Assembly (NCBI GenBank): GCA_043814605.1
Contig: JBDRJV010000037.1
Coordinates: forward strand, 31,899-95,898
Length of the DNA stretch: 64,000 nt
From: Candidatus Omnitrophota bacterium
Lineage (GTDB): Bacteria > Omnitrophota > Gorgyraeia > B26-G9
Direction of reading: 5' to 3'
The translations under genes and the position numbers were made by a program. Positions 5,561 through 40,139 of the stretch are shown piece by piece. Under the pieces are notes generated by a model, which worked only from the letters and a program-made list of their open reading frames with translations, ran no database searches and was not told where the DNA came from. Positions within the stretch are counted from its first letter, which is position 1. The number at the start of each line of letters is the position of its first letter.

Positions 5561-7057
5561 ATGTCAAATAAAATCACTAAAAGCAGCATCATTTTAATCC
5601 TGATAATAACCGCGATCTTTATAGGTTTAAGATTATTTTTATTACTGGACACGGATACTTTTCATGGTATTGCCGCAGGAAGAACTTTGCTTGCAGAATT
5701 AATATTAAGGAACGGTTTTTATTCAAAGTTATGCTTTGTTCCCGTACATCCGCCAATACATACAGTTATGCTAGTTGCGGGATTGTTTATCTGGAATAAT
5801 CCGATAATTTTACCTGGGTTAGTAAGTTTATTTTTCGGGACGCTTACTTGCCTTCCTTTTTATTACTATAACAAAAGTGTTTTTGATGAAAAAGTGGCTG
5901 TATTTTCGCTAGCAGCAATTAGTTTGTATTCTGATCATATTGCTTATAGTATTATTGGGACTTCAGAAACAATTTTTCATTTTTTTCTTTTCAGTAGTTT
6001 AGTTTTTGCTTTATTTTTTAAAAAAAACAAGAATATGCGGTATTTTTATCTGAGTGCAATAATGATTTCAATAGCTAGTTTATGCCGGTATGAAGGAATA
6101 ATATTTATCCCTTTTTTTTCTGTTTTTTTAACTAAGAAAATAAAAAATATTATTCTCTTTCTAATTGTTTCTTTAATTTTACCGGGTATATGGATGTGCG
6201 TAAATTTTTATTTTACCGGAAATTTTATATATTTTTTAAATACTAATGATATTACCGTACCTTTACAATTTAATTGGATGCGGTTGCAGGGGCTAGATAT
6301 AAACGTTACTTATAAAATTCTATTTTGGCCGCGAGTTTTAATCAATACAATAGGAGTATTTTTTCTTTTTTTTGGACTTGGGGGAGTTATCTTTTGTTTA
6401 AAGAGAGGAGAAAAATTATTTCCGGCAGGATTAGTCATATTTATATTATGTTTATTTGTATTAAGAACTTATCAAGAAAAACTCTATTTGCAGACTCGCT
6501 ACGGCATAACCATTGGTTTATTATTAATTCCTTTTGCAATTTACTTTTTTCAGGTTACTGTTAAAAAGATTAATCGTAACTTGCCGGACTGGTTAGTTTT
6601 ATTTTTACTTTTGACCCTGATTCCTGCCTGGGGAAAGACACTTTCCCAGGAAAGCTTATTTCTCCCGGATACAGTTAAAAATATAAGCAGTTTTTTAGGT
6701 AAAGAAGTTAAAGAAAATGAAAATATTTTTATAACTTCAGAACAAAATGAAAATTATCGTGAAGTGATAAAATTAAGAAGCCGTCTTAATCCTAAACAAT
6801 TTATACTAATTCCGTATCTTGAGCCGTATGAAAACAAATTTATTATAAAACTGGAAACATTTTTTCAATATTTAGAAAAAGAGAATATTAAGTTTTTTGT
6901 CTATTCTCCAGAGGGAGAGTTAGGAAATATTCTGAAATTTGAGGGAAAAGGGGAAAAGTTTAATATGAATGGGTTCTGGTTCAAGCTTATTTATAAAAAT
7001 AGATTATATCATATTTATAAGGTAGACCCTTTAAAAGAGGGGGTAGAAGATGTTTAA
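5561..7057 (+). CDS. Polytopic membrane protein, GT-C-like glycosyltransferase (paralog B)
   Basis: 498 aa with the same TM topology and the shared N-terminal FHGIAAG motif as 4119..5555. Confidence 0.5.
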   Translation: MSNKITKSSIILILIITAIFIGLRLFLLLDTDTFHGIAAGRTLLAELILRNGFYSKLCFVPVHPPIHTVMLVAGLFIWNNPIILPGLVSLFFGTLTCLPFYYYNKSVFDEKVAVFSLAAISLYSDHIAYSIIGTSETIFHFFLFSSLVFALFFKKNKNMRYFYLSAIMISIASLCRYEGIIFIPFFSVFLTKKIKNIILFLIVSLILPGIWMCVNFYFTGNFIYFLNTNDITVPLQFNWMRLQGLDINVTYKILFWPRVLINTIGVFFLFFGLGGVIFCLKRGEKLFPAGLVIFILCLFVLRTYQEKLYLQTRYGITIGLLLIPFAIYFFQVTVKKINRNLPDWLVLFLLLTLIPAWGKTLSQESLFLPDTVKNISSFLGKEVKENENIFITSEQNENYREVIKLRSRLNPKQFILIPYLEPYENKFIIKLETFFQYLEKENIKFFVYSPEGELGNILKFEGKGEKFNMNGFWFKLIYKNRLYHIYKVDPLKEGVEDV

Positions 7058-8282
7058 ATTGTGCCGAGGCCGAATAATATTTTCAATGGATATATTCGGA
7101 GATTTAATTAAAAGTTTTTTTAGTAAAAAAAATAATGGAGAGTTAACTATTAAAAAATTTGAAGATGATTTTGCTCAATATATTGGCAGTAAACATGCAG
7201 TTGCGGTTGCTTCGGGTAAGATGGCATTGTATTTAACGTTGAAGGCATTAGGCGCAAAGGAGGGGGATCAGATTATTATTCCTGCCTATACAGTTAGCGA
7301 AGTTATTGATGTAATTATTCTTTGTAAATTAATACCGGTTTTTGTGGATATTAATCTTAAAGACGCGAATATTGATGTATCCTTGATTGAAAAAAGAATT
7401 ACTCCGAATACTAAATTTATCTTAATGGTACATATGTTTGGATGCCCCTGTGACATTGATGAAATAATTGCAATAAGCAAAAAATATAATCTTAAAGTTA
7501 TTGAAGATGGAGCTCAGAGCTGTGGGGCTGAATATAAAGGAAAAAAAATAGGAAGTTTTGGTGATATTGGGTATTTTAGCTTTGGCATCATGAAAAATTT
7601 AAATACATTAGGCGGGGGAATGATTGTAGCGCAAAATTCTGATCGAATAAATTTTATTAGAAAACAGATAAATAAGTTTTCTGAAAATTTGATGGGGCAA
7701 CTTTTTAAAAAAACGGTTTTAGTTTTTTTTGTATCTATACTAACTACGCCGGTTATATTCTCATTTGTAGTATATCCGTTACTATTTATTATCGAAGAGA
7801 ACAGAAGAGAAAAAATATTTAAGAGTTTATTTAAAGCTAGACCTGTAACAGCACAGTGTATGGAAAAGCTAAAAGTAAAATTTTCTCCTTATCAAGCGGC
7901 GATTGGCATAGCCGGCCTTAAAAAAATTGAACAGATAAATCAAAAGCGGATAAATAATGCTAAAGTTCTAAATCAGGCTCTTAATAATATCGATGGTGTT
8001 TCTTTGATTAAAGAATCAAGTGATTCAAAAAACATTTATTTAAACTATGTGATCCGCATTAATAACAGACAAAAACTAATTAATCGTATGTTTAATAAAG
8101 GAATTGATGTAAGTGCGGGGTTTATTGAATGCTGTCCGGATTTAGCCAGATTTGAGCTTTACCAGTGCGATTGTCCTAGAAGCAGGATTTGGGAAAAAGA
8201 AAATCTATATTTACCGGTTTATCATCCGCTGAAAAGAGAAGTAATGATAAAAATTTCGAAATTAATAAAGGAAGCATTGTGA
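7050..8282 (+). CDS. DegT/DnrJ/EryC1/StrS-family PLP-dependent sugar aminotransferase (ArnB-like), with unusual hydrophobic insertion
   Basis: Family motifs are present: EDGAQSCGAEYKGKKIGSFGDIGYFSF...K...GGGMIV and the FSPYQAAIGIAGL region. A ~45 aa insertion (KTVLVFFVSILTTPVIFSFVVYPLLFII) is absent from the two other DegT paralogs in this window. Confidence 0.8.
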   Translation: MFKLCRGRIIFSMDIFGDLIKSFFSKKNNGELTIKKFEDDFAQYIGSKHAVAVASGKMALYLTLKALGAKEGDQIIIPAYTVSEVIDVIILCKLIPVFVDINLKDANIDVSLIEKRITPNTKFILMVHMFGCPCDIDEIIAISKKYNLKVIEDGAQSCGAEYKGKKIGSFGDIGYFSFGIMKNLNTLGGGMIVAQNSDRINFIRKQINKFSENLMGQLFKKTVLVFFVSILTTPVIFSFVVYPLLFIIEENRREKIFKSLFKARPVTAQCMEKLKVKFSPYQAAIGIAGLKKIEQINQKRINNAKVLNQALNNIDGVSLIKESSDSKNIYLNYVIRINNRQKLINRMFNKGIDVSAGFIECCPDLARFELYQCDCPRSRIWEKENLYLPVYHPLKREVMIKISKLIKEAL

Positions 8283-8296
8283 AAAATAATCATAGC

Positions 8297-9676
8297 ATGG
8301 AGGGTGGTTTGAATATAATTAAGAATGCCTTACGAGGAGTCGGCGGGTTATTTTTATTAGCTTTTTTTGTGCGGCTTGGTTTTTTAATGAGTTCTGATAA
8401 TTTTTACGGATTTGGGCCGATGTTAAATATTATTACCGCATTAAAGGCTTTTAATTATTTTTCTTTTTTTGAAAATATTTATTTCTGCCCTTTACCCTTT
8501 TATTTATATTCACTGGTTTTTTCAGTATGGATGGGAACGGAACAAATTATTTGCGCACAGTTTTTAAGTTTATTATTCGGCAGTTTAAGCATACCAATTT
8601 TTTATTTATTTGTAAGAAAAAATTTCAATAAACTAATCGCTTTTTATGCCGCATTAATTTTGTGTTTTTATCCGGCCCATATCATAATGAGTATTATTAC
8701 AAGCGCGGATAGTATAGGTTTTTTTCTTTTACTTGTTTGTTTAAATCTAATTTTAAATAAAAATTATTTTTACGCATCAATAATATTAGCAATAAGTTGC
8801 GGATTTACCTATTTAGCATGGGTTTTTGTGCTGATTTTAAATTTATTTATGTTTATCCAATCGGATAAAAAAAATATAAAAAAAATAATAAAATTATTTT
8901 TTTTCAGTATAATTAGTTGTTCTGTTCCTGCAGCTATCATAGTTTTAATCAAGATTAAATATTGCTCGCAAGGGCTTTTTTACAGGAATTTTTATTTAGC
9001 AGACTCATTTATGCGCTACATAATAAATTATGGCAATACGGTTAAAATCGCAATCAGGGCTTTGTTAATGCAGCCGGTTTCGGGATTTTTCCTGGTTAGT
9101 TTAATCGGAGTTTTTTTCTTTTTAAAACAAAAAAGGATAAAGTGTTATGATTTAATTTTTTTATTTGGACTCACATTAATATTGATTTGTTTAGGGATAT
9201 TTAGAGATGAAATTTGCATTTTAGGTCAGGGTGTAAACTTTTTATCAATCATGTGCATACCTTTTTTTGTTTTTGCCGTTACATCCATATTGCAAAAATT
9301 TAAAATAAAAAAGATAATCTTTGTTTTAATTTGCATTTTTTGTTTGATTTTGTTTTTAGTCAGTACTTGTTTAAAACCGAAATTACCGGAAAAAGTAAAA
9401 GAATTGAGTGCCTGGCTAAAAGAAAATATTGATGAGAAAACCAAAATTTATATAAACAAGGATGAAACAGGGTATTATAGTTCAATTATCATGCTTAGCG
9501 GTCTGCCGCAGGGTAATTTTAAATATTATAATAGCTTTGATGATTTTTCTGGCCAGGTTGATGCTGAGGATAATTATCTTATTCTTAGTCTGGAGCAATA
9601 TAGTCAAGCTAAAAATGTTCCGGGTGAGAATTTAATAGTTTTAGAAGGTTATTCTGTATATAAATTAGATAACTAG
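8297..9676 (+). CDS. Polytopic membrane protein, probable GT-C-like glycosyltransferase
   Basis: The ORF track starts at 8189, overlapping the upstream gene by 94 nt. The first in-frame ATG after the upstream stop (8282) is at 8297 (MEGGLNII). The protein is multi-TM throughout with a soluble C-terminal tail. Confidence 0.45.
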   Translation: MEGGLNIIKNALRGVGGLFLLAFFVRLGFLMSSDNFYGFGPMLNIITALKAFNYFSFFENIYFCPLPFYLYSLVFSVWMGTEQIICAQFLSLLFGSLSIPIFYLFVRKNFNKLIAFYAALILCFYPAHIIMSIITSADSIGFFLLLVCLNLILNKNYFYASIILAISCGFTYLAWVFVLILNLFMFIQSDKKNIKKIIKLFFFSIISCSVPAAIIVLIKIKYCSQGLFYRNFYLADSFMRYIINYGNTVKIAIRALLMQPVSGFFLVSLIGVFFFLKQKRIKCYDLIFLFGLTLILICLGIFRDEICILGQGVNFLSIMCIPFFVFAVTSILQKFKIKKIIFVLICIFCLILFLVSTCLKPKLPEKVKELSAWLKENIDEKTKIYINKDETGYYSSIIMLSGLPQGNFKYYNSFDDFSGQVDAEDNYLILSLEQYSQAKNVPGENLIVLEGYSVYKLDN

Positions 9677-9677
9677 A

Positions 9678-10781
9678 TTGTTAATAAAAATGAAAATAAT
9701 TTTTATCACGCGAGAATCTAAAGAAATGCCAGCAGTGCGAGTCCGCAGCTATGGGTTTGCAAAATTTTTAGAAAAAGCAGGGTATGAAACTATAATTTTC
9801 TCTTATGCTGATAATTTAATGGCTGGAAGCGGAAAAAAAGAGGATAAGTTAAGTATTTTTGACAAAATTAAATATAATTTTAAAACTCTAAAATATCTTT
9901 CTTCTCAGAAAGCAATTTTAGTTTTACAAAGATGTAATTACCATTCTTTTGCGCCCTTACTGCTGGCATTATTGAACCGGAATAAGTTAATTTTCGACCT
10001 GGATGATTGGGAAGCGCGTGAAGATATTCATTATTATTTTAATAAAATCCCTAATTCAAAAGCAATAATTCTCTTATCGCTAATTGCGAGAAAGAGTAAA
10101 TTATGTATCGGCGCAAGCGATTTTTTATGTGAGTTTCTTTTGAATTATAATAAAAATATTTTAAAAATACCAACAGGTGTGGATGTGGAAAATTTTAAGC
10201 CGGATAAAAAGGATAATAATTTACAGCATATAGTATTGTCTTGGATTGGGACTATTTACCGCAAGGATAATCTGGAAAATTTAAAATTTCTTATAGATTG
10301 TTTTCAGGAGCTGTTTGCAGAATTTAATAATATCAGGCTTGAAATCGCCGGAGAGGGTATTTATGCAGATAAATTAATCGCGCTAATTAAAAATATTAAT
10401 AATCAAGATATCATTTTTAAAAACTGGATTAGTCCTGCGAAAATGCCGGATTATCTAAAGAATGTTGATATTGGCGTTATGCCTTTAACCCAAAATTCAA
10501 AATTTAATAAAGCGAAAAGCCCCACCCGCTTGTTTGAATATATGGCGATGGAAAAGGCAGTGGTGGCTAGTACTGTGGGAGAAGCACAAAAGATTATTAA
10601 AAACGGGGAAAATGGATTTTTAGCATCGACAAAAAGTGAGTTTGTTGCGTGCCTAAAAAAATTAATAGAAAATGAGCAGTTAAGGTTAACAATTGGCAGG
10701 TTCGCACGTAAAACAGTAATTGCAGATTATAATTTAAATAAAATTCCGGAAAAATTATTAGAATATATAGGGAAGATATAA
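9678..10781 (+). CDS. GT-B glycosyltransferase, family 4 (glycosyl transferase group 1)
   Basis: The C-terminal KSPTRLFEYMAMEKAVVASTVGEAQKIIKNGENGFL matches the GT4 E-x7-E nucleotide-sugar binding region. Confidence 0.75.
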   Translation: MLIKMKIIFITRESKEMPAVRVRSYGFAKFLEKAGYETIIFSYADNLMAGSGKKEDKLSIFDKIKYNFKTLKYLSSQKAILVLQRCNYHSFAPLLLALLNRNKLIFDLDDWEAREDIHYYFNKIPNSKAIILLSLIARKSKLCIGASDFLCEFLLNYNKNILKIPTGVDVENFKPDKKDNNLQHIVLSWIGTIYRKDNLENLKFLIDCFQELFAEFNNIRLEIAGEGIYADKLIALIKNINNQDIIFKNWISPAKMPDYLKNVDIGVMPLTQNSKFNKAKSPTRLFEYMAMEKAVVASTVGEAQKIIKNGENGFLASTKSEFVACLKKLIENEQLRLTIGRFARKTVIADYNLNKIPEKLLEYIGKI

Positions 10782-10786
10782 AAAAA

Positions 10787-12253
10787 ATGAAAGTAGTTAT
10801 TGCAAACTCTATAGGTGTTGACAAAAATAACAATTTTATAATTCATTCTCCCAGTCGTTGGTCAGAAGGAGTTAAAAGTAAATCACATTGGTTTGCTTAT
10901 TATCCTTGGGAACTATCCTATTTATCCAGTTTATTAAAAAAAGAAACTGATTTTAATATTAAATTTTTAGATGGTTGTTTGATGCAATGGGATTCAGAAA
11001 CATATTTTTCTAAAATTACAACTATTAATCCAGATGTTTTGATTATGGAAAGTGCAACCAGAATGATTGATGAAAATGTTAATCTTGCTCGGCGCATTAA
11101 ACAAAAATGTCAGGCAACGATAATTTTTGTGGGCCAGCACGCCAGTGCTTTTCCACAAGAATTATTAACCCAGGGTATAGATTATGTTTGTATCGGAGAG
11201 TATGAATATACTGTGCTGGAATTGCTGCAGAATAAGGATAAGAGGCAGATTTTAGGGCTTTATCCTAATCCCAGAAGAGATTTATTAGATATTAACAGTT
11301 TACCCTGGCCTGAGGATTCTGACGTAAAACGTATTGATTATGCATCTCCGGGGGAACCGAGTTCAGAATATCGAGAAATTCAAATGTATGCATCCCGGGG
11401 TTGTCCGGGATCCTGCAGTTTTTGCGTTGCCAGGCACGTTTACTACAACCAGCCGAATTGGCGACCGAGAAAAATAGAAAACATTATTAGCGAAATTATT
11501 TATTTAAAAAATAAATATCCAAAGATGGAAGGAGTTTTTTTTGATGAAGAAGTTCATAATGGCAGAAAAGACTTTATCCTGGATTTAACGCAAGCCATAA
11601 TCGATGCAAAACTGAATAATTTAAAATATGAAGCGATGTGCGATGTAAGATTTTTAGATGAGCAGATCTTAGGAGCAATGAAAAGAGCTGGTTATTACAA
11701 GATCAGAATCGGCATTGAAACAGCAAGCCGGAAAATTATGCAGCAAATTAATAAAAAAATTGATTTAAAACAGGTTTTTAATCTGCTAAAGCTGGCCCAA
11801 AAAATTGGCATAAAAACCTACGGTACTTTTACTTTCGGAGCGCCGGGCTCTAATGAAACTGAGGATAAAAAAACAATTTTACTAATTCAAGATTTAATAA
11901 ATAATGATTATTTAGATAACTTACAGCTTTCAATTTGCACTCCTCAGCCAGGAACTCCTTTTTATGAAAAAGTAAAAGAAAATCATATGCTGCGAAATGA
12001 TTTAACTTTTAATATTTTTGACGGGGGGAATCATTGCATTATAAATTATCCAGATTATCATTATAAAATTATTGAAAAAACTAAACAAAATGCATTATTG
12101 ATGCGAGATCATTTTTTTTTAAAAAATAAAATTCAAAATAAGACTTTTTTCCAATGGATTGGGAATGTTTATAAAAAACATGGAGTTTTCAGAAGCGCGG
12201 CAAAGGCTTTTTTTAGAATATTAACAGAAATTAAATTTTATTTCGTAAAATGA
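10787..12253 (+). CDS. B12-binding-domain radical SAM protein (class B rSAM)
   Basis: An N-terminal Rossmann-like B12-binding region is followed by YASRGCPGSCSFCVA (CxxxCxxC). Confidence 0.75.
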   Translation: MKVVIANSIGVDKNNNFIIHSPSRWSEGVKSKSHWFAYYPWELSYLSSLLKKETDFNIKFLDGCLMQWDSETYFSKITTINPDVLIMESATRMIDENVNLARRIKQKCQATIIFVGQHASAFPQELLTQGIDYVCIGEYEYTVLELLQNKDKRQILGLYPNPRRDLLDINSLPWPEDSDVKRIDYASPGEPSSEYREIQMYASRGCPGSCSFCVARHVYYNQPNWRPRKIENIISEIIYLKNKYPKMEGVFFDEEVHNGRKDFILDLTQAIIDAKLNNLKYEAMCDVRFLDEQILGAMKRAGYYKIRIGIETASRKIMQQINKKIDLKQVFNLLKLAQKIGIKTYGTFTFGAPGSNETEDKKTILLIQDLINNDYLDNLQLSICTPQPGTPFYEKVKENHMLRNDLTFNIFDGGNHCIINYPDYHYKIIEKTKQNALLMRDHFFLKNKIQNKTFFQWIGNVYKKHGVFRSAAKAFFRILTEIKFYFVK

Positions 12254-13143
12254 TTGAAATCAGCATTGTTATTGTAACTTATTCTGCAGAGAAATTCATA
12301 AAAAATTGTTTAGATTCTGTTTTTGCGCAGGATTTAAATAATTTTGAAGTTATTATTATTGATAATAACTCTGGCGATAATACTATTAATATCTTAAAGA
12401 AATATTTGTCAAAAATAATTTTAATAGAAAATAAAAAAAATGAGGGTTTTTGTTTCGCAACTAATCAAGGCATATTACTTGCAAAAGGAAAATATATATT
12501 TACTTTAAATAGCGATGTTTACTTAAGTAAGGACTACGTTTTAAATTTAAAAAATTTTTTAGAAAGAAATTTAGAAGCAGGCATGGCAGGGGGTAAATTG
12601 TTAAGAATGGATAAAATAACTATCGATACTATCGGCCTAAAATTGGGGGTTTTTTATCGGTTCTTAAATATCGCAGAATCGGAGAAAGATACGGGTAAAT
12701 ATAAAGTTCCTTTAGAAATTATGGGTCCTTGTGCAGCCGCGGCCTTATATAAGCGGGAGCTTTTAGAGAGTATTAGATATAAGGATGAATTTTTTGATAA
12801 TCAGTTTTTTTTCTTGGCTGATGATTTTGATATTGCCTGGCGGGCACAGCGAATAGGTTGTAAGGGGTTTTATGTTCCAAATGCAGTTTGCTGGCATTAC
12901 CGGGATAGTTCAGGGCATAAATCCCAGTTCAAACAATACCTTTCATTCAGAAACAGGTATTATTTATTGATTAAAAATGCGGGTTTTAAAACTGTTTTTT
13001 TGTTTGCATTAGGTTTTTTATTTTATGATTTTCCCAGGCTGGTTTTTCTTTTAATAACTAATACTAAGTATACAGCGAAAGCAATAGCGGAAATTTTTAT
13101 GAATATGCCTGAAATTTTATCAAAGCGTGTAAAAAAAATATGA
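12250..13143 (+). CDS. GT2 family glycosyltransferase
   Basis: Has the IVIVTYSAEKF...IIIDNNSGDNT N-terminal GT-A signature and a DDFDIAWRAQ region. It is a paralog of 49120..50097. Confidence 0.7.
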   Translation: MIEISIVIVTYSAEKFIKNCLDSVFAQDLNNFEVIIIDNNSGDNTINILKKYLSKIILIENKKNEGFCFATNQGILLAKGKYIFTLNSDVYLSKDYVLNLKNFLERNLEAGMAGGKLLRMDKITIDTIGLKLGVFYRFLNIAESEKDTGKYKVPLEIMGPCAAAALYKRELLESIRYKDEFFDNQFFFLADDFDIAWRAQRIGCKGFYVPNAVCWHYRDSSGHKSQFKQYLSFRNRYYLLIKNAGFKTVFLFALGFLFYDFPRLVFLLITNTKYTAKAIAEIFMNMPEILSKRVKKI

Positions 13144-14252: not shown

Positions 14253-14826
14253 AAAAATAATTCAGATTTTAACAATAAGCATAATTTTTATTAGTTTCAA
14301 TAGGTATCTTTATGCAGAAAATTTATTTTATCCATTTGATGCCCGAGATATTACCGGGAAATGGCAGGAATCAGTAATCGAACAAGATGAGGTAATTAAG
14401 ACGGCATCCTTAAAAACAAAAGGAAAAATACAGTTAAATATCCCGGAAGATGGATTTTACCAATTATGCATTGAATTATATCACAATTGGCACAAATTCT
14501 GTCCTTTTATCTATTTTAATACGAGAGACAGCCAAGGAAAAACTTTTTCGGATTTTTTATTTTCAGAAAAACGATGGTATTTACCAGAAAATAGCGGCCG
14601 CTGGGAAATGAGGGCGCTGAGTGCAAATCCTTTTTGGTTTTTACATAAAGGTGAACTTAATATTGAATTCTGGCTCGAATCAAAACAATCTTGCTGGGAC
14701 AAACAGGATAAAGAAATAGAAGGAGAGTTTTATATTAAAAGATTTATTTTAGTAAAAGTTGATATGCTCGAAAAAAGCGATAAAAACTTTCAAACTAAAA
14801 ATTTAGAAAAAACAGAAGATTTTTAA
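14245..14826 (+). CDS. Hypothetical secreted protein
   Basis: N-terminal signal-peptide-like segment (ILTISIIFISFNRYLYA). No recognisable domain. Confidence 0.45.
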   Translation: MFRKIIQILTISIIFISFNRYLYAENLFYPFDARDITGKWQESVIEQDEVIKTASLKTKGKIQLNIPEDGFYQLCIELYHNWHKFCPFIYFNTRDSQGKTFSDFLFSEKRWYLPENSGRWEMRALSANPFWFLHKGELNIEFWLESKQSCWDKQDKEIEGEFYIKRFILVKVDMLEKSDKNFQTKNLEKTEDF

Positions 14827-14832
14827 TAAAAA

Positions 14833-15675: not shown

Positions 15676-15814
15676 GAGATAATTAATCCGGTGAAGAGGA
15701 TTATTGCTAAACCCAATATAATATTTATTAAAAAATTAGGGACGGTTAAGTTTTAATTAGTTAAGATTTTTATATTTGAGTACAGTATTCCATAAAAGTT
15801 TAGAAAGAAAAGTT

Positions 15815-18063: not shown

Positions 18064-18131
18064 TAGATAAAATTAATTTTTAAAGCATAGATTTATGAAA
18101 AAGTATTTAAAAATTTGAAAGGATAAAACCA

Positions 18132-18968: not shown

Positions 18969-18987
18969 TTTTAACTGGGGTGGTCCA

Positions 18988-20805: not shown

Positions 20806-20817
20806 ACACTTTTCATT

Positions 20818-22284: not shown

Positions 22285-22286
22285 TT

Positions 22287-24746: not shown

Positions 24747-24752
24747 AGTTAT

Positions 24753-26135: not shown

Positions 26136-26144
26136 GAATAGAAT

Positions 26145-28855: not shown

Positions 28856-28859
28856 GAAT

Positions 28860-31851: not shown

Positions 31852-31865
31852 AAAGAGGAAAACTA

Positions 31866-32933: not shown

Positions 32934-33895
32934 ATATAAAATATGATTTTAGAAATGAACGGGAAAAGAATTTTCCTTTGATGCTTAATTTGGAAATAAC
33001 TAATATCTGTAATTATCAATGTATACATTGTCCTTATCCAAGTATTTCTCAAAGAAAAGATTATACCCCTAAGTTTATGTCCTGGGAAATTTTTAAGAAA
33101 ATAGCTGATCAAACTGCTAATTATCCTGAGACAATTTTTAGATTTGTTTGTGATGGGGAACCAATGATGCACCCAGATTTTTTAAGAATGGTTGAATATG
33201 TTAAAAACTTAAAAATCAGTCCGGTTTGTTTTACTACTAACGGATATTTTTTAACCCCGGAGGTTTCTCGTAAAATAGTTGAATTTGGTTGTGACCTTAT
33301 CGAAATAAGTTTAGATGCTTTTTCAGAGTATAGTTATAATAAAATCCGCCGGGGTGGAAATTATCATAAAGTTATTGATAACCTTAATTATCTTATCCAG
33401 TCAAAAAATGAACTATCTGCAAAGAGTTCAAAGATTATGGTTAGTATTATAGATCAGCCTTTAGTTAAAAATGAGATAACTACATTTAAGAATTTTTGGC
33501 AGGATAAGGTAGATTATGTGATTACAAGAGTATTAACGAGTGCGGGCGGGTTTATTAAGGAATCTATTCGAGATAATAAAACTGATGTGGAAATACGATG
33601 GCCTTGTCCTTTATTATGGCGGAGATTGTTTATTAATGTAGATGGTTGGGCTGAATATTGTGTGGATGATTGGTTAGATCAATCGATTTTAGGTGATGTA
33701 AATAAAGAGAGTATTGCCTCTATCTGGGGAGGCCAAAAATATCGAGATTTAAGAAAAAATCACATAAATAATAATTTTAGTTACAATGAAAAGTGTGCAC
33801 AATGTCAGGATTGGAGAGCCAGAACCTGGGAAAATGATTATTTTCATGCAATAGAGAGGATTTTTAATTTAAATTTTAAAAATGAGAATTATTGA
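32930..33895 (+). CDS. Radical SAM / SPASM-domain protein
   Basis: EITNICNYQCIHCP (CxxxCxxC). A downstream Cys-rich region (CPLLW...C...CAQCQ) is consistent with SPASM/twitch clusters. Confidence 0.75.
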   Translation: MNIKYDFRNEREKNFPLMLNLEITNICNYQCIHCPYPSISQRKDYTPKFMSWEIFKKIADQTANYPETIFRFVCDGEPMMHPDFLRMVEYVKNLKISPVCFTTNGYFLTPEVSRKIVEFGCDLIEISLDAFSEYSYNKIRRGGNYHKVIDNLNYLIQSKNELSAKSSKIMVSIIDQPLVKNEITTFKNFWQDKVDYVITRVLTSAGGFIKESIRDNKTDVEIRWPCPLLWRRLFINVDGWAEYCVDDWLDQSILGDVNKESIASIWGGQKYRDLRKNHINNNFSYNEKCAQCQDWRARTWENDYFHAIERIFNLNFKNENY

Positions 33896-35222
33896 TAGTA
33901 CAAAAAGCTTATGTCCGGTTTGTTTACAATGGATTGATTCTGCGGTAGTTACAAAAGATGACCATAAAGTATATTTAGAAAAAAAATGTCCGGAACATAA
34001 AGGAAGTTTGGTGTTTCTTTCTCCGGATGCAGAAGGATTTATTGTTTTAAGAGATTTCTACTTTCAAACTCATCAAAAAATATTTCCCCAAACTCGCTAC
34101 CTTTGTTTTTTAACCCCTAAGTGCAACCTTTCTTGTCCAATTTGTTTTTTGGATTCAGGAATGCAGGATAAAGAAGATATTAATAGGAAAGACTTAGTTA
34201 GGTTTTTGAATAATGGCAAAAAAGAAATAATTATTTTTGGAGCAGAGCCAACTTGCCGTAAAGATATTTTTGAAATAATCAGTTTTCTTAAAAAAAAGCA
34301 GCATTCGGTGAGTCTATACACTAATGGGATAAAATTAGTTGATTATAAATATGCGGAGAAGATTAAGCAAACAAAAGTAAACAAAATATATTTTCAATTT
34401 GATGGTTTTGATGATTCTATTTATGAGGTTTTACGTAAAGTAAAGCTCAAAGATCTCAAGATTAAGGCATTAGATAATTTAAAAAAAATTAATATGCCTG
34501 TGGTTTTAGATGTTGCCTTAGCCAGAGATGTTAATATTAACCAAATGGGATCTATTTTTGAATACGCTCTGAATAACAATTTTATTAAAACAATAAACTA
34601 TATCGCTTATGTGCGTTCTGGTGGAGGAGGAAAATATCTAGCGAATCAAGCAATTATGCCGGATGAATTAATAGACGAAATAAGTAAAGCTACAAAAATG
34701 AGAATAAACAGAGTTAATATGAGAATTTTTCAGAAGTTATTATATGTGTATATGTCAACTTTAAAGAAAAGAACATGTTTTTATATTAAATATTTTTGGG
34801 TTTTCCGCACAGAAAATAACCAGTATTTAACATTTGATCAAATAATTAATTTTGATATGCTAGAAAAAATATTAAATAAGTATGTATTATTAGTAAAAAA
34901 ACAAAATCAGATAATTGCTAGTATGTATTTAGTACTGAAACTTCCTTTTTTACTTTTTTCTATAAAAAACAATAAAGCTTTTTTTCAAATGCTGAAAATG
35001 ATTTTTTCGCATGTTTTTAATCGGGGAGATTATTCTTGCGTTAGGGGTGAGTTTTTACAACTAATATTTACTACTGCCTGTGATGTGGATAAGGCAGATT
35101 TGAAGATTTCGCAGCGTTGTCATGTGGGCATGATGTATAAAAATAAACAAGAAAAATTAGAAGTTTTTAATGAAAATGGTATGTATTTATTAAATCAGGA
35201 AATTCAGAAGAAAGGTGTTTAG
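33882..35222 (+). CDS. Zinc-ribbon-fused radical SAM enzyme (paralog 6 of 6, divergent)
   Basis: CPVC...CPEHKG, CNLSCPIC, FGAEPTCRKDI, YTNGIKL. Confidence 0.75.
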   Translation: MRIIDSTKSLCPVCLQWIDSAVVTKDDHKVYLEKKCPEHKGSLVFLSPDAEGFIVLRDFYFQTHQKIFPQTRYLCFLTPKCNLSCPICFLDSGMQDKEDINRKDLVRFLNNGKKEIIIFGAEPTCRKDIFEIISFLKKKQHSVSLYTNGIKLVDYKYAEKIKQTKVNKIYFQFDGFDDSIYEVLRKVKLKDLKIKALDNLKKINMPVVLDVALARDVNINQMGSIFEYALNNNFIKTINYIAYVRSGGGGKYLANQAIMPDELIDEISKATKMRINRVNMRIFQKLLYVYMSTLKKRTCFYIKYFWVFRTENNQYLTFDQIINFDMLEKILNKYVLLVKKQNQIIASMYLVLKLPFLLFSIKNNKAFFQMLKMIFSHVFNRGDYSCVRGEFLQLIFTTACDVDKADLKISQRCHVGMMYKNKQEKLEVFNENGMYLLNQEIQKKGV

Positions 35223-35227
35223 CTAAA

Positions 35228-36715
35228 ATGCGGATTGGATTTATTTATTCTGAAATGGAAACACTGGGTATCCAATATTTATCTAGTTTTTTAAAACAAA
35301 ATGGATATACAACCAAGCTTTTTTTTGATCCGCAATTATTTGCAGATACAATTTCTCAGAGCAAGTCTTTAAACAAGGTCTTTGACTATAAAAAACAATT
35401 ATTCAAGCAGATAGAAGCATTTAAGCCGGATTTTTTAGCATTTTCTGTTTTAAGTACTAACTACCATTGGGCATTTAAATTTACAAAAGAAATAAAAGCA
35501 AGGTTGAACATTCCTATTGTTTGGGGGGGGGTTCATCCTACTTTAGACCCGGAATCTGTTTTAAAACTTGATTGTGTGGATTATATAATAGCGGGAGAAG
35601 CAGAAGAAGCATTGCTTGAGTTTGTTAATAAATTTAAGAATAAGAATTCTCTGAGTAAATTGAGAAATGTATATACAAAGGTTAATGGAAAAATTATAAA
35701 AAATTTATTAAGGCCATTAATAAATAATTTAGATCAATTACCTTTTCCGGATAAAGATATATTTTATGACATTATGCCATATTTAAAAGATCATTATACA
35801 ATTGTAACGGGAAGAGGATGTCCGCATGCGTGTACTTTTTGTTGCAATCACAGTTTAAGGAAAATAAATGAGCAAAATAGTGGGAAAAATAATTTTTTAA
35901 GACGTAGATCAGCAGACAATGTGGTTACTGAATTAAAGCAAGCTAAAGAAAAATATCATATCAAAGATGTTTTTTTTGAGGATAGTACTTTTACTTACGA
36001 TAAAAAGTGGTTGAAGGAATTTGCAATCTTGTACCATGATTCAATTAATTTGAATTGCTTTTGCTGGGTTCATCCGGCTGAAATTGATGAGGAAGTAGTA
36101 GGATACTTAAGATTAATGAATTGCCGTGCTGTTGAAATGGGAGTAGAAAGTATAAACTCAGAGATTAGGGCCAAATGGTTAGGGCGTAACTATCCCAATG
36201 AGAAGATTGAAAACGCATTAAAATTATTAAAGAAAAATAAGATTTTTTGCATCACAGATAATATTATCGGATTACCCGAAGAAGAAATAAAAGATTTAGA
36301 AAATTTAGTAGATTTTTATAATAAATTACGGCCTGAAAAAATTTATATATTTGAACTAAGAATGTTTCCAAATACTCAGATGCATGAATTGTATCATGAT
36401 TATCAAGACAGCTTTAAAGAAAACAATGATGGATTGTCCCCGTTTACGTTATCTTCTTCACAGAACAAAATGGCGAAAAAAATTATTGTTTTAATTTTAG
36501 CGATACAATTTTTGCCTAAAAAAGTAATCAATTTTTTATTAAAAAATAAGTTATACAAGTTTTTCCCCGCTATAAATTTATATAATCTTTTAGAAATTAC
36601 GCCTTTTTTCTTGAATTTATTCAAAAGAGAAAAACTTTGGTTTCCCATTCGCGGAACAAGAAAAAGGTATTTATTTTTTGCTAAAAAGATGATTATAAAT
36701 TTTATTAAACGTTAA
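35228..36715 (+). CDS. B12-binding-domain radical SAM protein (paralog subfamily 'LGIEYLSA')
   Basis: LGIQYLSSFLKQNGY, TGRGCPHACTFCCN, C-terminal IQFLPKKVINFLLKNKLY. Confidence 0.8.
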   Translation: MRIGFIYSEMETLGIQYLSSFLKQNGYTTKLFFDPQLFADTISQSKSLNKVFDYKKQLFKQIEAFKPDFLAFSVLSTNYHWAFKFTKEIKARLNIPIVWGGVHPTLDPESVLKLDCVDYIIAGEAEEALLEFVNKFKNKNSLSKLRNVYTKVNGKIIKNLLRPLINNLDQLPFPDKDIFYDIMPYLKDHYTIVTGRGCPHACTFCCNHSLRKINEQNSGKNNFLRRRSADNVVTELKQAKEKYHIKDVFFEDSTFTYDKKWLKEFAILYHDSINLNCFCWVHPAEIDEEVVGYLRLMNCRAVEMGVESINSEIRAKWLGRNYPNEKIENALKLLKKNKIFCITDNIIGLPEEEIKDLENLVDFYNKLRPEKIYIFELRMFPNTQMHELYHDYQDSFKENNDGLSPFTLSSSQNKMAKKIIVLILAIQFLPKKVINFLLKNKLYKFFPAINLYNLLEITPFFLNLFKREKLWFPIRGTRKRYLFFAKKMIINFIKR

Positions 36716-36738
36716 GTAGTGATCAGTAAGGATAAATA

Positions 36739-38199
36739 ATGAAAGTTGCTTTTATTAGCTGCTCTAATGAAAGTTTAGGGATCGAATATTTATCAGCGTA
36801 TTTAAAACAGCAGGGACATAAAACTAGAGTTTTTATTGATCCCCAATTATTTAATGATGAACATTTAGATGTTCCTTTGGCTGCAAAAATTTTTAGTTAC
36901 CAAAAAAACCTAGTGAAAAAGGTCATTGATTATAATCCGGATTTAATCGGATTTTCTGTAGTTAGCGATTTTTATCATTGGGCTTGTGATTTAGCCCGAG
37001 AATTTAAAAAACATCTAAATGTACCGATAATTTTTGGCGGTATCCATGCGAGTTCTGTCCCGGAAGAAGTGATTAAAAATAAATTTGTAGATATGGTTTG
37101 CATTGGTGAAGGGGAAGAAGCTTTAGCTGAGGTTGTTAATCGATTAGAAAATAGACAAAATCCGGTTGATGTTTTGAATGTTTGGGCAAAAAAAGATGGC
37201 AATATTATTAAAAATAAATTACGACCATTGATAAATGATTTAGATCATATCCCTTATCCAGATAAGAAAATATATTATGATACAAGCTTTCATTTTCAAA
37301 TAGGTTATTATACAATAGCCAGCCGAGGTTGTCTTTATACTTGTACATATTGTCATCACTCATTTTTGAGAACAATTTATCCTCATTCTGATTATTATCG
37401 TGTTCGTAGTGTAGGCAATATCATAGAAGAATTATCCATTAATTTTGATAAAAAAAAACATAAAGTTATCCGTTTTTCCGATGATATTTTCCCTTTTAAA
37501 GAAGAGTGGTTAAAGGAATTTGCAGATAAATTTAAGGCGCGTATAAATGCTCCGTTTATTTGTTATATTCATCCGGACACTATTAATCCAGAAAATATTG
37601 ATTTATTAAAAAAAAGCGGATGCGTGGAAGTACAATTAGGAATCCAGACTCTCTATGAGCAGACTCAGAAAAAAATACTAAACAGAAATATTTCTCAAAA
37701 AAGATGGCAGGAAGTATTTTTATTGCTTTATAATGCAAACATTAAAATTACAGCAGAAAATATATTAGGTATTCCCAATCAGGAAATTTGTGAAATTGAA
37801 GATTTAATTAGGTTTTACTGTTATAATAAAGCTGATCGAATTCAGGTTTTTTGGCTTAAATTTTATCCTAAAACAAAAATTAAAGAGTTTATTAACCAAA
37901 TTGACAAAAATACGCAAGTGGATAACTCAAATAAAGAGAAAACTTTTACACAAGGCGGTGATATTTTTACAAAGGAACTTGCCAAATTAAGAATTATTTT
38001 TTGTTTATTGCATTTTCTGCCCCCTAAAGTAATTGAATGGCTGCTTGCTAATAAAAGATATCAATCTTGTTTTTTAATCCCTTTATGGATTTTAAATTTA
38101 ATATCGAATTTTACGAGTAAAGTTGCTTCTGATAAAATCACACGCAAAAGGGAGTGGATGAAATACTTAATCTTTGTCCAGAGAAGGTTTATTCGGTAA
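36739..38199 (+). CDS. B12-binding-domain radical SAM protein (paralog subfamily 'LGIEYLSA')
   Basis: LGIEYLSAYLKQQGH, ASRGCLYTCTYCHH, C-terminal LHFLPPKVIEWLLANKRY. Confidence 0.8.
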   Translation: MKVAFISCSNESLGIEYLSAYLKQQGHKTRVFIDPQLFNDEHLDVPLAAKIFSYQKNLVKKVIDYNPDLIGFSVVSDFYHWACDLAREFKKHLNVPIIFGGIHASSVPEEVIKNKFVDMVCIGEGEEALAEVVNRLENRQNPVDVLNVWAKKDGNIIKNKLRPLINDLDHIPYPDKKIYYDTSFHFQIGYYTIASRGCLYTCTYCHHSFLRTIYPHSDYYRVRSVGNIIEELSINFDKKKHKVIRFSDDIFPFKEEWLKEFADKFKARINAPFICYIHPDTINPENIDLLKKSGCVEVQLGIQTLYEQTQKKILNRNISQKRWQEVFLLLYNANIKITAENILGIPNQEICEIEDLIRFYCYNKADRIQVFWLKFYPKTKIKEFINQIDKNTQVDNSNKEKTFTQGGDIFTKELAKLRIIFCLLHFLPPKVIEWLLANKRYQSCFLIPLWILNLISNFTSKVASDKITRKREWMKYLIFVQRRFIR

Positions 38200-38918
38200 T
38201 GGTAGTTGATGAAATATCTTTAATTGTCCCTGTTTATAATGAGCAGGAATTAATTCAAGAAACAGTAGAAATATTTTTAACAGATTTATCAAATATCTGT
38301 AAAAATTATGAATTGATTATAGTTGATGATGCGAGCACAGATGAGACAGCAGAGATTTTAAAGAATCTGAAATCTAAATATCAACACCGGTTAATAGTTA
38401 TTACAAATGAGAAAAATATAGGTGGTGGCCGGAGTTTAATTAAGGGCTTTCACGCGGCTAGATATTCGCTTGTGGCAACAAACTTTGCGGATAGGCCATT
38501 TAATTTATTAGAACTTAAAAATATATTACCAAAATTTTTAAAGAATATTGATTTTATCGTTGTGGTCCGTAAAAATAGGTCCGCTAACAGTGTTTACCGT
38601 AAAATTACTTCTCTGATTAATTATTATTTAATTCGGCTGCTTTTTAATATAAAAGTTAAGGATTTCCAATTTGTCCAGATTTATAAAAGAGAAATATTAC
38701 AATCGATAAGCGTAGATTCCCACAGAACTTTTGTGCCCCCGGAAATTATTATTAGGCTGCTTTTGAATAATTACATTATGGATGAATATGAAGCCGATTT
38801 TTATCCGAGGACAAAAGGGATGGCTAAGTGCGGAAATCCGCGGATAATTTTAAGGGCAATTTATGATATGTTTTCTTTCTGGGTAAATTTAAATTTATTG
38901 AAAAAATATAGGGATTAA
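38199..38918 (+). CDS. GT2 polyprenyl-phosphate glycosyltransferase (ArnC / DPM1-like)
   Basis: The first ATG after the upstream stop is at 38199 (TAATG overlap). SLIVPVYNEQELIQ...ELIIVDDASTDETAEIL and the following region match DPM1/ArnC-type GT2 enzymes, which charge polyprenyl-phosphate with a sugar. Confidence 0.65.
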   Translation: MVVDEISLIVPVYNEQELIQETVEIFLTDLSNICKNYELIIVDDASTDETAEILKNLKSKYQHRLIVITNEKNIGGGRSLIKGFHAARYSLVATNFADRPFNLLELKNILPKFLKNIDFIVVVRKNRSANSVYRKITSLINYYLIRLLFNIKVKDFQFVQIYKREILQSISVDSHRTFVPPEIIIRLLLNNYIMDEYEADFYPRTKGMAKCGNPRIILRAIYDMFSFWVNLNLLKKYRD

Positions 38919-38924
38919 AGAATC

Positions 38925-40139
38925 ATGCAGGCTAATCATAAATTAAAACCAGCTATTGCAGGGGGGAAACCCGTAAGGAAAAAAATGCTGCCTTTGCATC
39001 AATCTGATTTTTCTCAAGCAGAAGAAAAAGCGGTAATAAAAGTTTTGCGCTCGGGATGGCTGACTAAGGGGCCGCAAACAAAAACACTCGAAGAAAAATT
39101 TACTAAATTTGTTAAAGCCAAATATGCTATTGGGACAAATTCTGGGACAAGTGCATTACATCTTGCTTTGAGTTGTTTAGATTTAAAAAAAGGTGATGAG
39201 ATTATAGTTTCTCCGCTGACTTTTGTCTCTGCGATTAATTCAATTATTCATTGTAATTGCAAACCTGTATTTGTTGATGTTGATCCCCTAACTTTAAATA
39301 TTGATCCCGAGCAGATTGAATCTAAAATCAATATGAGAACTAAATGTATAATGCCCGTACATTTATATGGACAAGCATGTGTGATGAATAAAATTTTAAG
39401 AATAGCTAAAAAAAATAAAATATTTGTAATCAGTGATGCGGCGCATGCTTTAGAAACAGTATATAACCGGAAAAAAATCGGCTCGATCGGGGATATCACT
39501 TGTTTTAGTTTTCATCCGGCTAAAAATATTACTTCTGGGGAAGGAGGAATGCTGGTAACAAATAATAAAAAGTTTGCACAAAAAGCTCAAATGTTAAGTT
39601 TGCATGGTATAGATAAAAGTACTTGGACCAGATACACTCAAGATAGATTTCAGCATTGGACAACAATCGCGCCGGGGTTTAAATATCACATGACTGATCT
39701 GCAAGCTGCAATTGGTTTAGCCCAATTAGAAAAAATCAAAAAATTTTGGCAAAAAAGAAAAAAATACACAAAAATGTATTTATCTGCTTTTAAAGATATT
39801 CCTCAAATAAGAGTGATTACAAAAATGTCATCACTAAAAAATAAAAATGCATATCATTTATTCATAATACAAATAGATACAAAAATGTTAAAAATTAATA
39901 GAGACTATATTTTAAATGCACTACTAGCTGAAAATATTGGGGTAGGGGTTCATTATCGTGCAATTCATTTACACAGTTTTTATAAGAACCATTTTAGTTT
40001 TAAAAAAGGAATGCTGCCTCAGGCTGAGTATGCAGCAGAGAGAATAATTACTTTACCCTTATATCCAAAAATGAAACAAAGTGATATTAGTGATGTTATT
40101 GATGCAGTGAGCAAGGTTATAACCTATTATAAAAAGTAG
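38925..40139 (+). CDS. DegT/DnrJ/EryC1/StrS-family PLP-dependent sugar aminotransferase
   Basis: SDAAHALETVYNRKKIGSIGDITCFSFHPAKNITSGEGGMLV (an SFHxxK PLP-lysine motif) and DLQAAIGLAQLEKI. Confidence 0.85.
   Translation: MQANHKLKPAIAGGKPVRKKMLPLHQSDFSQAEEKAVIKVLRSGWLTKGPQTKTLEEKFTKFVKAKYAIGTNSGTSALHLALSCLDLKKGDEIIVSPLTFVSAINSIIHCNCKPVFVDVDPLTLNIDPEQIESKINMRTKCIMPVHLYGQACVMNKILRIAKKNKIFVISDAAHALETVYNRKKIGSIGDITCFSFHPAKNITSGEGGMLVTNNKKFAQKAQMLSLHGIDKSTWTRYTQDRFQHWTTIAPGFKYHMTDLQAAIGLAQLEKIKKFWQKRKKYTKMYLSAFKDIPQIRVITKMSSLKNKNAYHLFIIQIDTKMLKINRDYILNALLAENIGVGVHYRAIHLHSFYKNHFSFKKGMLPQAEYAAERIITLPLYPKMKQSDISDVIDAVSKVITYYKK

Follow-up and report, generated by a model that had tools for sequence, protein, structure and literature searches.

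Results

Organization of the gene array

The 64-kb stretch of DNA analyzed here, which we call the window, comes from a metagenome-assembled genome (MAG) of Candidatus Omnitrophota (~29% G+C; no tRNA genes were found). It carries a single plus-strand array of 43 genes (54..54290, 97% coding), in which a small glycosyltransferase related to ArnC, DPMS and GtrB and a series of membrane-embedded GT-C glycosyltransferases are accompanied by 20 radical S-adenosylmethionine (SAM) enzymes. Neighboring genes overlap or lie at most 30 nt apart at 33 of the 42 junctions, and this tight packing suggests that the array is co-transcribed; the largest intergenic gap (381 nt) lies directly 5′ of the gene at 41973. 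All array genes are on the plus strand and are named below by their first nucleotide. Scans of the window open reading frames (ORFs) with Pfam (51 ORFs) and NCBIfam identified three DegT aminotransferases, one family 4 (GT4) and three family 2 (GT2) glycosyltransferases, one family 4 carbohydrate esterase (CE4), a WbqC and a DUF362 protein, two class I methyltransferases, eight polytopic proteins and the 20 radical SAM enzymes, whose genes make up about half of the coding length of the locus. Directly 3′ of the array lies the dcw cell-wall cluster, with mraZ, mraW, a small ftsL-like ORF, PBP3, murE, murF, two inserted genes and mraY, which starts near 63180 and runs past the window end.

A sequence-only reading of this DNA had described an aminosugar locus between 7050 and 40139 that follows the logic of the Arn pathway, which places 4-amino-4-deoxy-L-arabinose (L-Ara4N) on lipid A. 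A real enzyme array occupies that range, but the range is too narrow, as the array runs from 54 to 54290. All four enzyme classes on which that reading was built (DegT, ArnC-like GT2, CE4 and GT-C) are present where it had placed them. Its start codons, which give products shorter than the longest ORFs, also proved valid, and that of 18988 is identical to the NCBI call.

A small glycosyltransferase of the polyprenyl-phosphate lineage

The gene at 38199..38918 encodes a small GT2 (PF00535), whose ATG shares 1 nt with the stop codon of the preceding gene (the longest ORF starts at 38154). When the protein was compared with solved structures, ArnC was the best match (5e-17), followed by DPMS and GtrB. 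A profile built from its six-member family returned the same three enzymes over almost the whole length (ArnC 1e-38, DPMS 5e-30, GtrB 1e-28; positions 5-227 to 5-235 of 246), whereas the next GT2 matched at 4e-19 and over positions 7-128 only, that is, the N-terminal half. As a control, the GT2 at 12250 was searched against PDB and matched chondroitin synthase, GalT1 and similar enzymes, with no ArnC, GtrB or DPMS among them; therefore, the grouping of the 38199 protein is specific. By these comparisons, it is a member of the polyprenyl-phosphate glycosyltransferase lineage (ArnC/DPMS/GtrB), and the transfer of a sugar to polyprenyl phosphate is its predicted activity. The earlier description of this protein as ArnC-like and of the lipid-carrier type thus held, as it groups with lipid-carrier enzymes and not with other GT2s. 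The ArnC model NF007986 is its best-scoring curated NCBIfam model, yet the score of 75.4 bits is far from the cutoff of 529.

ArnC consists of a GT-A domain, two juxtamembrane helices and two transmembrane (TM) helices, and carries a DADLQN motif in which D100 is the proposed base and D102 and Q104 are metal ligands (10.1101/2025.01.29.634835). We mapped the residues reported in that study onto the 38199 protein through its structure-hit alignment. The equivalents of D48, N77 and D102, which contact the nucleotide and metal, and of R128 and R137, which bind the phosphate of undecaprenyl phosphate (Und-P), are invariant in the six-member alignment. The two larger GT2s of the array, 12250 and 49120, each with a C-terminal TM segment, were also considered as the real ArnC/GtrB-like enzymes, and this assignment was rejected because 12250 matches generic GT2s only.

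Twenty radical SAM enzymes

The radical SAM set comprises nine B12-binding enzymes, six Zn_ribbon_HMPTM proteins homologous to Tes, the archaeal tetraether and macrocyclic-archaeol synthase that couples saturated lipid tails through their terminal carbons in glycerol dialkyl glycerol tetraether (GDGT) synthesis and is also called GDGT-MAS, two SPASM enzymes, two small MoaA-like proteins (22287..23339, assigned with Pfam, and 46178) and one AmmeMemoRadiSam protein. Four of the Tes-like paralogues stand in tandem (23388..28855; 56-60% mutual identity; PF23545 + PF04055), and the fifth (30448..31851) and sixth (33882..35222) were recognized by Pfam, paralogy and motifs. The paralogues match the GDGT-MAS structure (PDB 7tol) with an E-value of 3.5e-40. 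Tes carries a rubredoxin-like CX2CX20CX2H motif (PMC9433317), and the corresponding C15, C18, C39 and H42 are invariant in all six window proteins, as are C84, C88 and C91 of the CX3CX2C motif. Tes also has a C-terminal auxiliary cluster with a labile Met439 and a conserved Tyr459; in the window proteins, three C-terminal cysteines (C305, C404 and C417) are invariant, there is no invariant Met, and the alignment with 7tol stops at residue 340.

The B12-type enzymes score best against lipid and tetrapyrrole families, namely HpnJ, a ladderane-lipid B12 radical SAM family and BchE, in all cases below cutoff. Among curated models, 10787, 20818 and 35228 score highest against HpnJ, and HpnJ scores range from 99 to 177 bits against a cutoff of 577. 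The enzyme at 10787..12253 (PF02310 + PF04055) matches HpnJ over its full length with 152 bits, and BchE is the best model for 28860..30458 (165 bits versus a cutoff of 481). Three further enzymes, at 20818..22284 (Pfam, paralogy), 35228..36715 and 36739..38199 (Pfam), form what we call group A, and four more B12-type genes (40167, 43235, 44660 and 47388) lie among the last six radical SAM genes (40167..48833). The NCBIfam matches of these proteins also include ApyD, AprD4 and KedN5, from families of ribosomally synthesized and post-translationally modified peptides (RiPPs) or aminoglycosides.

One SPASM enzyme (2511..3572; PF04055 + PF13186) stands near the start of the array. For the other (32930..33895; Pfam), BtrN is the best match in PDB and the best solved relative (43 bits, E 3e-10). 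BtrN is a radical SAM dehydrogenase that works with the DegT-family enzyme BtrS in butirosin biosynthesis. The 32930 gene overlaps the stop codon of the second DegT gene, an arrangement of translational coupling, and this pairing may explain why there is no NAD-dependent sugar dehydratase or dehydrogenase in the window.

The sequence-only reading had suggested that the radical SAM enzymes tailor the sugar or its carrier, and the evidence collected here fits that suggestion. By treating them as an aside, however, it understates the locus, as they make up about half of it and are the genes most tightly linked to the small GT2.

GT-C glycosyltransferases and a lipid-binding-fold protein

Seven polytopic proteins had been described as GT-C enzymes, and our searches agreed in every case. 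Four match PMT_2 (PF13231) above threshold: 837..2510 (33 bits, above cutoff; a paralogue of 15776 by blastp), the tandem pair 4119..5555 and 5561..7057 (35% identity), and 15815..17362. The protein at 8297..9676 joins 4119 and 5561 as a third member of their paralogue family (blastp E 1e-12 to 1e-15 against the two; PMT_2 E 0.022). The divergent protein at 51758..53491 is placed in the PMT_2 superfamily by hhalign (68% probability against the PMT_2 paralogues); an exhaustive HMMER search found 48 relatives of it, 22 of the 30 aligned relatives match PMT_2, and E90 of the first loop and R141 are invariant in the family. GT-C enzymes conserve an acidic residue (DxD, DE or a modified form) in the first extracytoplasmic loop, and the PMT_2-type proteins have such motifs there (SDNF, DTDTF, PPDE and KDS), with PPDE after TM1 of 15815 and (S/T)D(N/T)F(H/Y)G conserved just after TM1 in 4119 and 5561.

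The seventh protein (18988..20805) is YfhO-like, and its C-terminal part comprises a beta-rich domain in the periplasm and a last TM helix. It does not match PF09586 even at E≤5, but PF09586 was found in four of 17 homologues, one of which is named YfhO by NCBI. The loop Glu of the family (F-x-E-G-G) is present in nine of 12 members and absent from the three most distant. Direct sequence searches of 4119 and of the YfhO-like profile against solved structures returned no matches, and a fold comparison was needed. Directly upstream, 18132..18968 encodes a periplasmic or membrane-anchored protein with a lipid-binding fold like that of LolA, RseB and LolB.

A conserved core in related loci

We collected the contexts of homologues from three NCBI Omnitrophota MAGs, two Logan assemblies, one JGI and one ENA contig, one GTDB MAG and one further JGI contig, and annotated these loci (numbered L001 onward) against the window proteins. 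A core recurs in at least six other loci, which belong to Omnitrophota wherever the source names the organism. It consists, in order, of the LolA-like gene, the YfhO-like GT-C, a B12-radical SAM gene, Tes-like genes, two group-A B12-radical SAM genes, and DegT with the small GT2, after which WbqC (found in L003, L007 and L009) often comes; this synteny was seen in L001, L003, L006, L007 and L009. A core that is syntenic elsewhere and, in the window, part of one dense plus-strand array argues that the enzyme set is no chance collection.

The LolA-like gene lies directly upstream of the YfhO-like gene in four loci, which are all of those with that position sequenced. The two genes are co-conserved, and the GT-C is part of the core rather than a chance neighbor. 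The small GT2 and the YfhO-like GT-C share one syntenic module in the window, L001, L003, L006 and L009. Tes-like copies number two to six per locus, with one in the truncated L005. The 20818/22287 block is syntenic 3′ of the YfhO-like gene in L001, L006 and L009, and the BchE-like 28860 has 66-68% identical orthologues in L001 and L003. The DegT-2 and SPASM genes adjoin each other in L001 and L007; a single gene separates them in L005, and two genes do so in L006. The pair of group-A genes is found next to the small GT2 in the same order in L001, L003, L006 and L009, with a DegT gene between the pair and the GT2 in two loci. L008 has a canonical-motif GT2 with a PMT_2 GT-C gene on either side.

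Among the matches listed, B12-radical SAM neighbors were present in six of six loci of the close GT2 clade, compared with none of 34 background loci (≥8 kb) of polyprenyl-phosphate glycosyltransferases. The clade itself is rare: 185,579 species representatives yielded one close relative (L009), the other six matches being generic Firmicutes/Chloroflexi GT2s, and the metagenome scan yielded at least two.

Several genes of the related loci deserve mention in their own right. L006 (GCA_026387355.1) has a called product of 1048 aa (1..2003) in which a radical SAM domain is fused to two GT2 domains, classes that are only adjacent in the window. Genes for AsnB-type amidotransferases (GATase_7 + Asn_synthase), for which the window has no counterpart, are found in L003 (18049..19950, adjoining WbqC and DegT), L006 (3431..5320) and L008 (1137..3029). 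L008 also encodes an LPG_synthase_TM protein (7298..8239; E 2e-35), of a family that includes putative lipid flippases, and L005 encodes a YdjC-family deacetylase (4273..5142) beside two GT2s; taken together, these recall hopanoid hpnI, hpnK and hpnL.

DegT aminotransferases and the CE4 deacetylase

The three DegT enzymes announced by the sequence-only reading, at 7050..8282 (DegT-1), 31866..32933 (DegT-2) and 38925..40139 (DegT-3), match PF01041 with E-values of 1e-73, 1e-91 and 3e-125, respectively, and all keep the PLP (pyridoxal phosphate) lysine, which lies in SFGIMK in DegT-1. DegT-3 is similar to PseC (369 bits versus a cutoff of 423.5) and ArnB (NF008658; 360 bits versus 631), and the ArnB scores of the other two are 203 and 156 bits. 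DegT-1 carries a strongly hydrophobic insertion of ~35 aa (residues ~215-250) within an insert of ~60 columns, with a Kyte-Doolittle (KD) value of 2.55 at residues 223-241. The insert is conserved in the L006, L007 and L009 orthologues, whereas DegT-2 and DegT-3 lack it. It may form a hairpin by which a sugar aminotransferase associates with the membrane, and its hydrophobic character is compatible with work there.

The cytoplasmic CE4 protein at 14833..15675 (PF01522) had been called ArnD-like. Its TxDxED, HxxxxH, RxP and HP catalytic motifs are intact, and it is a deacetylase of the CE4 family; the ArnD assignment did not stand. A C-terminal DUF3473 domain (PF11959) is present, the best NCBIfam model is TIGR03006 (DUF3473-containing XrtA-system deacetylase; 118 bits versus a cutoff of 276), and there was no ArnD-named NCBIfam model at E≤1e-3 and no ArnD among 32 PDB matches. 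The gene lies 23 kb from the small GT2, and no CE4 gene was found in the sequenced flanks (at most 10 kb on each side) of the GT2 in seven of seven related loci.

Discussion

A putative lipid-carrier glycosylation system with radical tailoring

We propose, at about an even chance, that the array encodes a multicomponent transmembrane glycosylation or glycolipid system in which a lipid-linked aminosugar is tailored by radical chemistry before its export. The BtrN-like enzyme would oxidize a sugar hydroxyl without oxygen, and a DegT enzyme would aminate the product to an aminosugar. The small GT2 would load this sugar, aminated or not, on polyprenyl phosphate or another lipid phosphate at the inner face of the membrane. 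The Tes-like and B12-radical SAM enzymes would then modify the tail, the sugar or both parts of the lipid-linked intermediate by C-C coupling, C-methylation or rearrangement; tailoring at the lipid-linked stage has precedents in ArnD and in HpnK/HpnJ. After some flippase has carried the intermediate across the membrane, the YfhO-like and PMT_2-type GT-Cs would transfer it to periplasmic acceptors, and the LolA-like protein would handle the lipidic product or donor.

The scheme follows the described plan of multicomponent transmembrane glycosylation, in which a GT-A enzyme makes the lipid-phosphate sugar, a flippase moves it and a PMT_2- or YfhO-type GT-C transfers it outside, as in GtrA/B/C, CsbB-GtcA-YfhO and GacI/J/K/L (PMC8035078). 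Like those systems, the locus unites a GT2 of the ArnC/GtrB/DPMS lineage with PMT_2-type and YfhO-type GT-Cs; it resembles GacI in having a GT-A enzyme without TM helices, and the larger YfhO and AftD proteins in having a GT-C with an extracytoplasmic beta-rich domain. Unlike them, it has no flippase or small membrane partner nearby, it combines seven GT-Cs with one polyprenyl-phosphate-type GT2, it carries FADRP instead of DxDxQ, and its GT2 lies within a battery of radical SAM enzymes to which it is specifically linked. Such a radical SAM set is unprecedented within multicomponent lipid-carrier glycosylation systems. Full-text literature searches found no described system that combines radical SAM enzymes, a polyprenyl-phosphate glycosyltransferase and GT-C enzymes, and searches of the Omnitrophota literature found no account of this locus.

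The radical SAM enzymes themselves recall three other systems. The six paralogues resemble Tes in their N-terminal CX2CX20CX2H domain, in their radical SAM core and in having C-terminal cysteines, and B12-type radical SAM enzymes stand beside them, as Grs and lipid methylases stand beside Tes. However, they are bacterial, have ~450 aa against 506 aa, lack the N-terminal auxiliary insert and occur in multiple copies in a glycosylation locus rather than as a single membrane-lipid gene. Bacterial Tes homologues have been known only bioinformatically and have been linked hypothetically to branched GDGTs (brGDGTs) (PMC8941075). In hopanoid synthesis, the GT2 HpnI attaches an N-acetyl-aminosugar to a lipid, the deacetylase HpnK removes the acetyl group and the B12-type radical SAM enzyme HpnJ then rearranges the product (PMC13459092). 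The block at 9678-15675 likewise combines a GT4 and a GT2 with an HpnJ-like radical SAM enzyme and a deacetylase, but the deacetylase is a CE4 and not a YdjC protein (L005 has YdjC), and there are no squalene or hopene genes in the window. As for BtrN and BtrS, DegT-2 is coupled to a radical SAM enzyme with an auxiliary-cluster domain, a pair kept within two genes in four related loci; the window enzyme differs in having a full SPASM rather than a Twitch domain, and it lies in an envelope locus rather than an aminocyclitol pathway.

Points that weigh against the proposal

The main weaknesses of the proposed system are the altered GT2 motif, the lack of a flippase in the window and the distance of the Tes-like proteins from characterized Tes. 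The 38199 protein reads FADRPF in place of the DADLQN of ArnC, with Phe for the proposed catalytic base D100 and Pro for the Mn ligand Q104. Because these DxDxQ residues are replaced, it may use another acceptor or another mechanism, or it may be inactive. It is also short (~240 aa, at most 254 aa), with no predicted TM helix against two in ArnC. Both traits mark the whole close clade: FAD(R/S)P was found in seven of seven GT2s (window, L001, L003, L006, L009, L016 and L017), which have 236-253 aa and no TM helices. Among the matches listed in the metagenome scan, nearly all of 78 more distant relatives with a readable motif have D[AG]D.Q[ND] and most have two C-terminal TM helices, and the L005 and L008 GT2s retain the canonical DxDxQ. 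GT-A enzymes that lack TM helices and cooperate with a separate membrane protein have been described (PMC8035078), but no small membrane partner is encoded in the window. No small-multidrug-resistance-type domain and no candidate for ArnE/F, GtrA or Wzx was found there, although a flippase may lie elsewhere in the genome, and a scan of the gaps between array genes revealed no small ORF for a flippase or membrane partner.

The radical SAM enzymes add doubts of their own. Tes (NF045702) is the best curated model for the Tes-like proteins, but the score is 150 bits where the cutoff is 450, and TrsS gives an equal score. The stretch that holds the N-terminal auxiliary [4Fe-4S] cluster in Tes (C73, C77, C80 and a His) is deleted in the alignment with 7tol, and there are no cysteines between C39 and C84; judged from these features, the Tes-like substrate need not be a lipid. 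For two radical SAM enzymes, the best structural relatives are BtrN and AprD4, whose substrates are soluble intermediates of aminoglycoside pathways. We also considered TM helices in the radical SAM enzymes as a sign of membrane-bound substrates and dropped this reading because their hydropathy maxima (1.6-2.35) span a range that includes the value of soluble MurE (1.64). The one conspicuous value is that of the DegT-1 insertion (2.55).

Competing explanations

One competing explanation is membership in the true Arn pathway, with L-Ara4N on lipid A as the product. The enzyme classes are those of Arn (DegT, polyprenyl-phosphate GT2, CE4 and GT-C), and the idea of tailoring a lipid-linked sugar is shared. 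Nevertheless, the locus differs in every specific: no equivalog cutoff is reached (ArnC 75 versus 529 bits, ArnB 360 versus 631), the CE4 is of the DUF3473/XrtA type, the GT2 lacks TM helices and has FADRP for DADLQ, and no GT-C protein matches an ArnT model of NCBIfam. None of the 51 window ORFs contains an ArnA-type domain (formyltransferase, UDP-glucuronic acid (UDP-GlcA) decarboxylase or epimerase/dehydratase), and ArnE/F are likewise missing from the window. The profile searches for ArnC, ArnD and ArnT that the sequence-only reading had proposed thus gave no Arn assignment, and we rejected Arn membership, which is effectively refuted and keeps next to no probability. What survives of that reading is its generic logic, in which a GT-A enzyme loads a lipid, the product is flipped and a GT-C enzyme transfers the sugar. 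Its picture of an aminosugar linked to Und-P in the cytoplasm and transferred on the periplasmic face holds in this general lipid-phosphate form, with nothing specific to Arn; this is the best available reading because the GT2 groups with lipid-carrier GT2s and the polytopic proteins are GT-Cs. A secondary-metabolite cluster of an aminoglycoside-like or RiPP-like kind, rather than an envelope system, would account for the many genes resembling B12-dependent C-methyltransferases, for the ApyD, AprD4 and KedN5 matches and for the DegT and BtrN-like pair. It appears highly improbable to us, as the gaps contain no plausible precursor-peptide ORF (a few uncharacterized ORFs of 31-56 aa are present), the window has no 2-deoxy-scyllo-inosose synthase, exporter or resistance gene, eight GT-C/Wzy_C polytopic proteins dominate the nonradical part, and the locus abuts dcw.

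Two other rivals are more probable. The array may be a conventional surface-polysaccharide locus, resembling those for O-antigen, capsule or exopolysaccharide (EPS), in which soluble nucleotide sugars are C-methylated, deoxygenated and oxidized by the radical SAM enzymes, much like the substrates of aminoglycoside pathways, the GT-C and Wzy_C proteins then decorate or polymerize the glycan, and the Tes-like proteins share only a fold with Tes. The GT4, two generic GT2s, Wzy_C, XrtA/EPS-type CE4, WbqC and methyltransferases are typical content of such loci; BtrN and AprD4 as nearest structural relatives of two radical SAM enzymes and the AsnB-type amidotransferases of related loci point the same way. 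We rate this explanation as somewhat unlikely, given that the 64 kb contain no initiating phosphoglycosyltransferase, no Wzx or ABC exporter, no nucleotidyltransferase and no NDP-sugar dehydratase, that six paralogues match GDGT-MAS at E 1e-40 with the rubredoxin spacing included, and that the radical SAM genes are specifically linked to a polyprenyl-phosphate-type GT2 and a LolA-like lipid-binding-fold protein. Alternatively, the Tes-like and B12 enzymes may build membrane-spanning, methylated or cyclized core lipids and so be a bacterial counterpart of Tes/Grs/Gms or Mss, with the GT2, GT4 and DegT enzymes making an aminoglycosyl head group in the manner of HpnI/HpnK/HpnJ and the GT-C genes being mere neighbors. 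The Tes homology fits this, as do the lipid enzymes among the best B12 models (HpnJ and the ladderane-lipid family), the GT4, HpnJ-like, GT2 and CE4 block at 9678-15675, the YdjC and GT2 genes of L005, the LPG_synthase_TM gene of L008 and the LolA-like fold; in addition, Mss and ElbD homologues have been reported in Omnitrophota MAGs (PMC11868695). We nevertheless find such lipid remodeling decidedly unlikely. Genes for making glycerolipids, ether lipids or isoprenoids are missing from the window, the syntenic core includes the YfhO-like GT-C, and the GT2, an enzyme of the polyprenyl-phosphate type, has retained the arginines that bind the phosphate.

Significance

If the proposed lipid-carrier glycosylation system is real, it would be the first of its kind, with GT-C transfer, whose lipid-linked intermediate undergoes extensive radical SAM chemistry, and bacterial Tes homologues would gain a context beyond membrane-spanning core lipids. 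A more specific version, which we consider unlikely as it stands, holds that the locus makes an undescribed Omnitrophota envelope glycolipid or lipid-linked donor: a derived, DxD-less GT2 would load an aminosugar on a polyprenyl or alkyl phosphate, Tes-like and B12-radical SAM enzymes would cross-link, cyclize or C-methylate the tail and possibly the sugar, and the YfhO-like GT-C and a LolA-like carrier would act in the periplasm. This would be a bacterial carrier-lipid counterpart of the tail tailoring of archaeal GDGTs. The cells of the uncultured Omnitrophota are very small and often depend on a host, and a conserved locus that exceeds 50 kb and lies beside the dcw genes is a concrete lead on their envelope chemistry. 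The FADRP motif, in place of a near-universal DxDxQ, offers a natural test of the role of the first Asp as catalytic base in ArnC, GtrB and DPMS. For geochemistry, lipids that Tes-like enzymes modify in anaerobic bacteria could be relevant to the question of where unusual branched or bridged sedimentary lipids come from.

Other genes of the array and its surroundings

The first array gene within the window (54..833) encodes a protein with one N-terminal TM segment (residues 36-54) and no Pfam or NCBIfam match. Two class I SAM-dependent methyltransferases were found, at 3569..4117 (Methyltransf_11/25) and at 53697..54290 (Pfam), the latter being the last array gene before dcw. The GT4 at 9678..10781 has the GT-B fold (Glyco_trans_1_4, Glycos_transf_1). 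The GT2 at 12250..13143 (PF00535) is a generic sugar-to-sugar enzyme with a C-terminal hydrophobic segment and a paralogue of the GT2 at 49120..50097, which has a C-terminal TM segment (Pfam, TM prediction, paralogy). The WbqC-family protein lies at 17362..18063 (PF08889, E 2e-75), and a literature search on WbqC function found nothing relevant. The Wzy_C protein at 50091..51755 (PF04932, 42 bits, above cutoff; NCBIfam matches) is a polytopic protein similar to O-antigen ligases and polymerases, with a TPR-like C-terminal tail and a weak IctB-family match; its gene overlaps the upstream GT2 by 7 nt, and 51758 starts 2 nt after it.

Two proteins have twin-arginine-like N termini. The DUF362 protein at 13140..14252 (PF04015) begins with MKKFTRREFLQ, which includes TRREFLQ, and its gene is followed by that of a secreted protein without a family assignment (14245..14826), a pairing also seen in L005 and L007. 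The AmmeMemoRadiSam-type protein at 41973..43166 exceeds the cutoff of its model (TIGR04337; 231 versus 220 bits) and begins with MSISRRNFLK, a surprising N terminus for an enzyme that depends on SAM; the window contains no gene for an AMMECR1 or Memo partner.

Scans for promoters and terminators as a means of splitting the array into operons gave 82 and 8 hits against shuffled expectations of 94.6 and 5.3, respectively; the counts were judged to be no excess over chance, and the scans were not used. With ~29% G+C, the window is markedly more AT-rich than the related loci L001-L009 and L016 (32-45%). Within dcw, the two genes inserted between murF and mraY (60954..63130) encode a secreted DUF3108-like protein and a protein of 482 aa with an N-terminal TM segment and a weak TPR-like tail.

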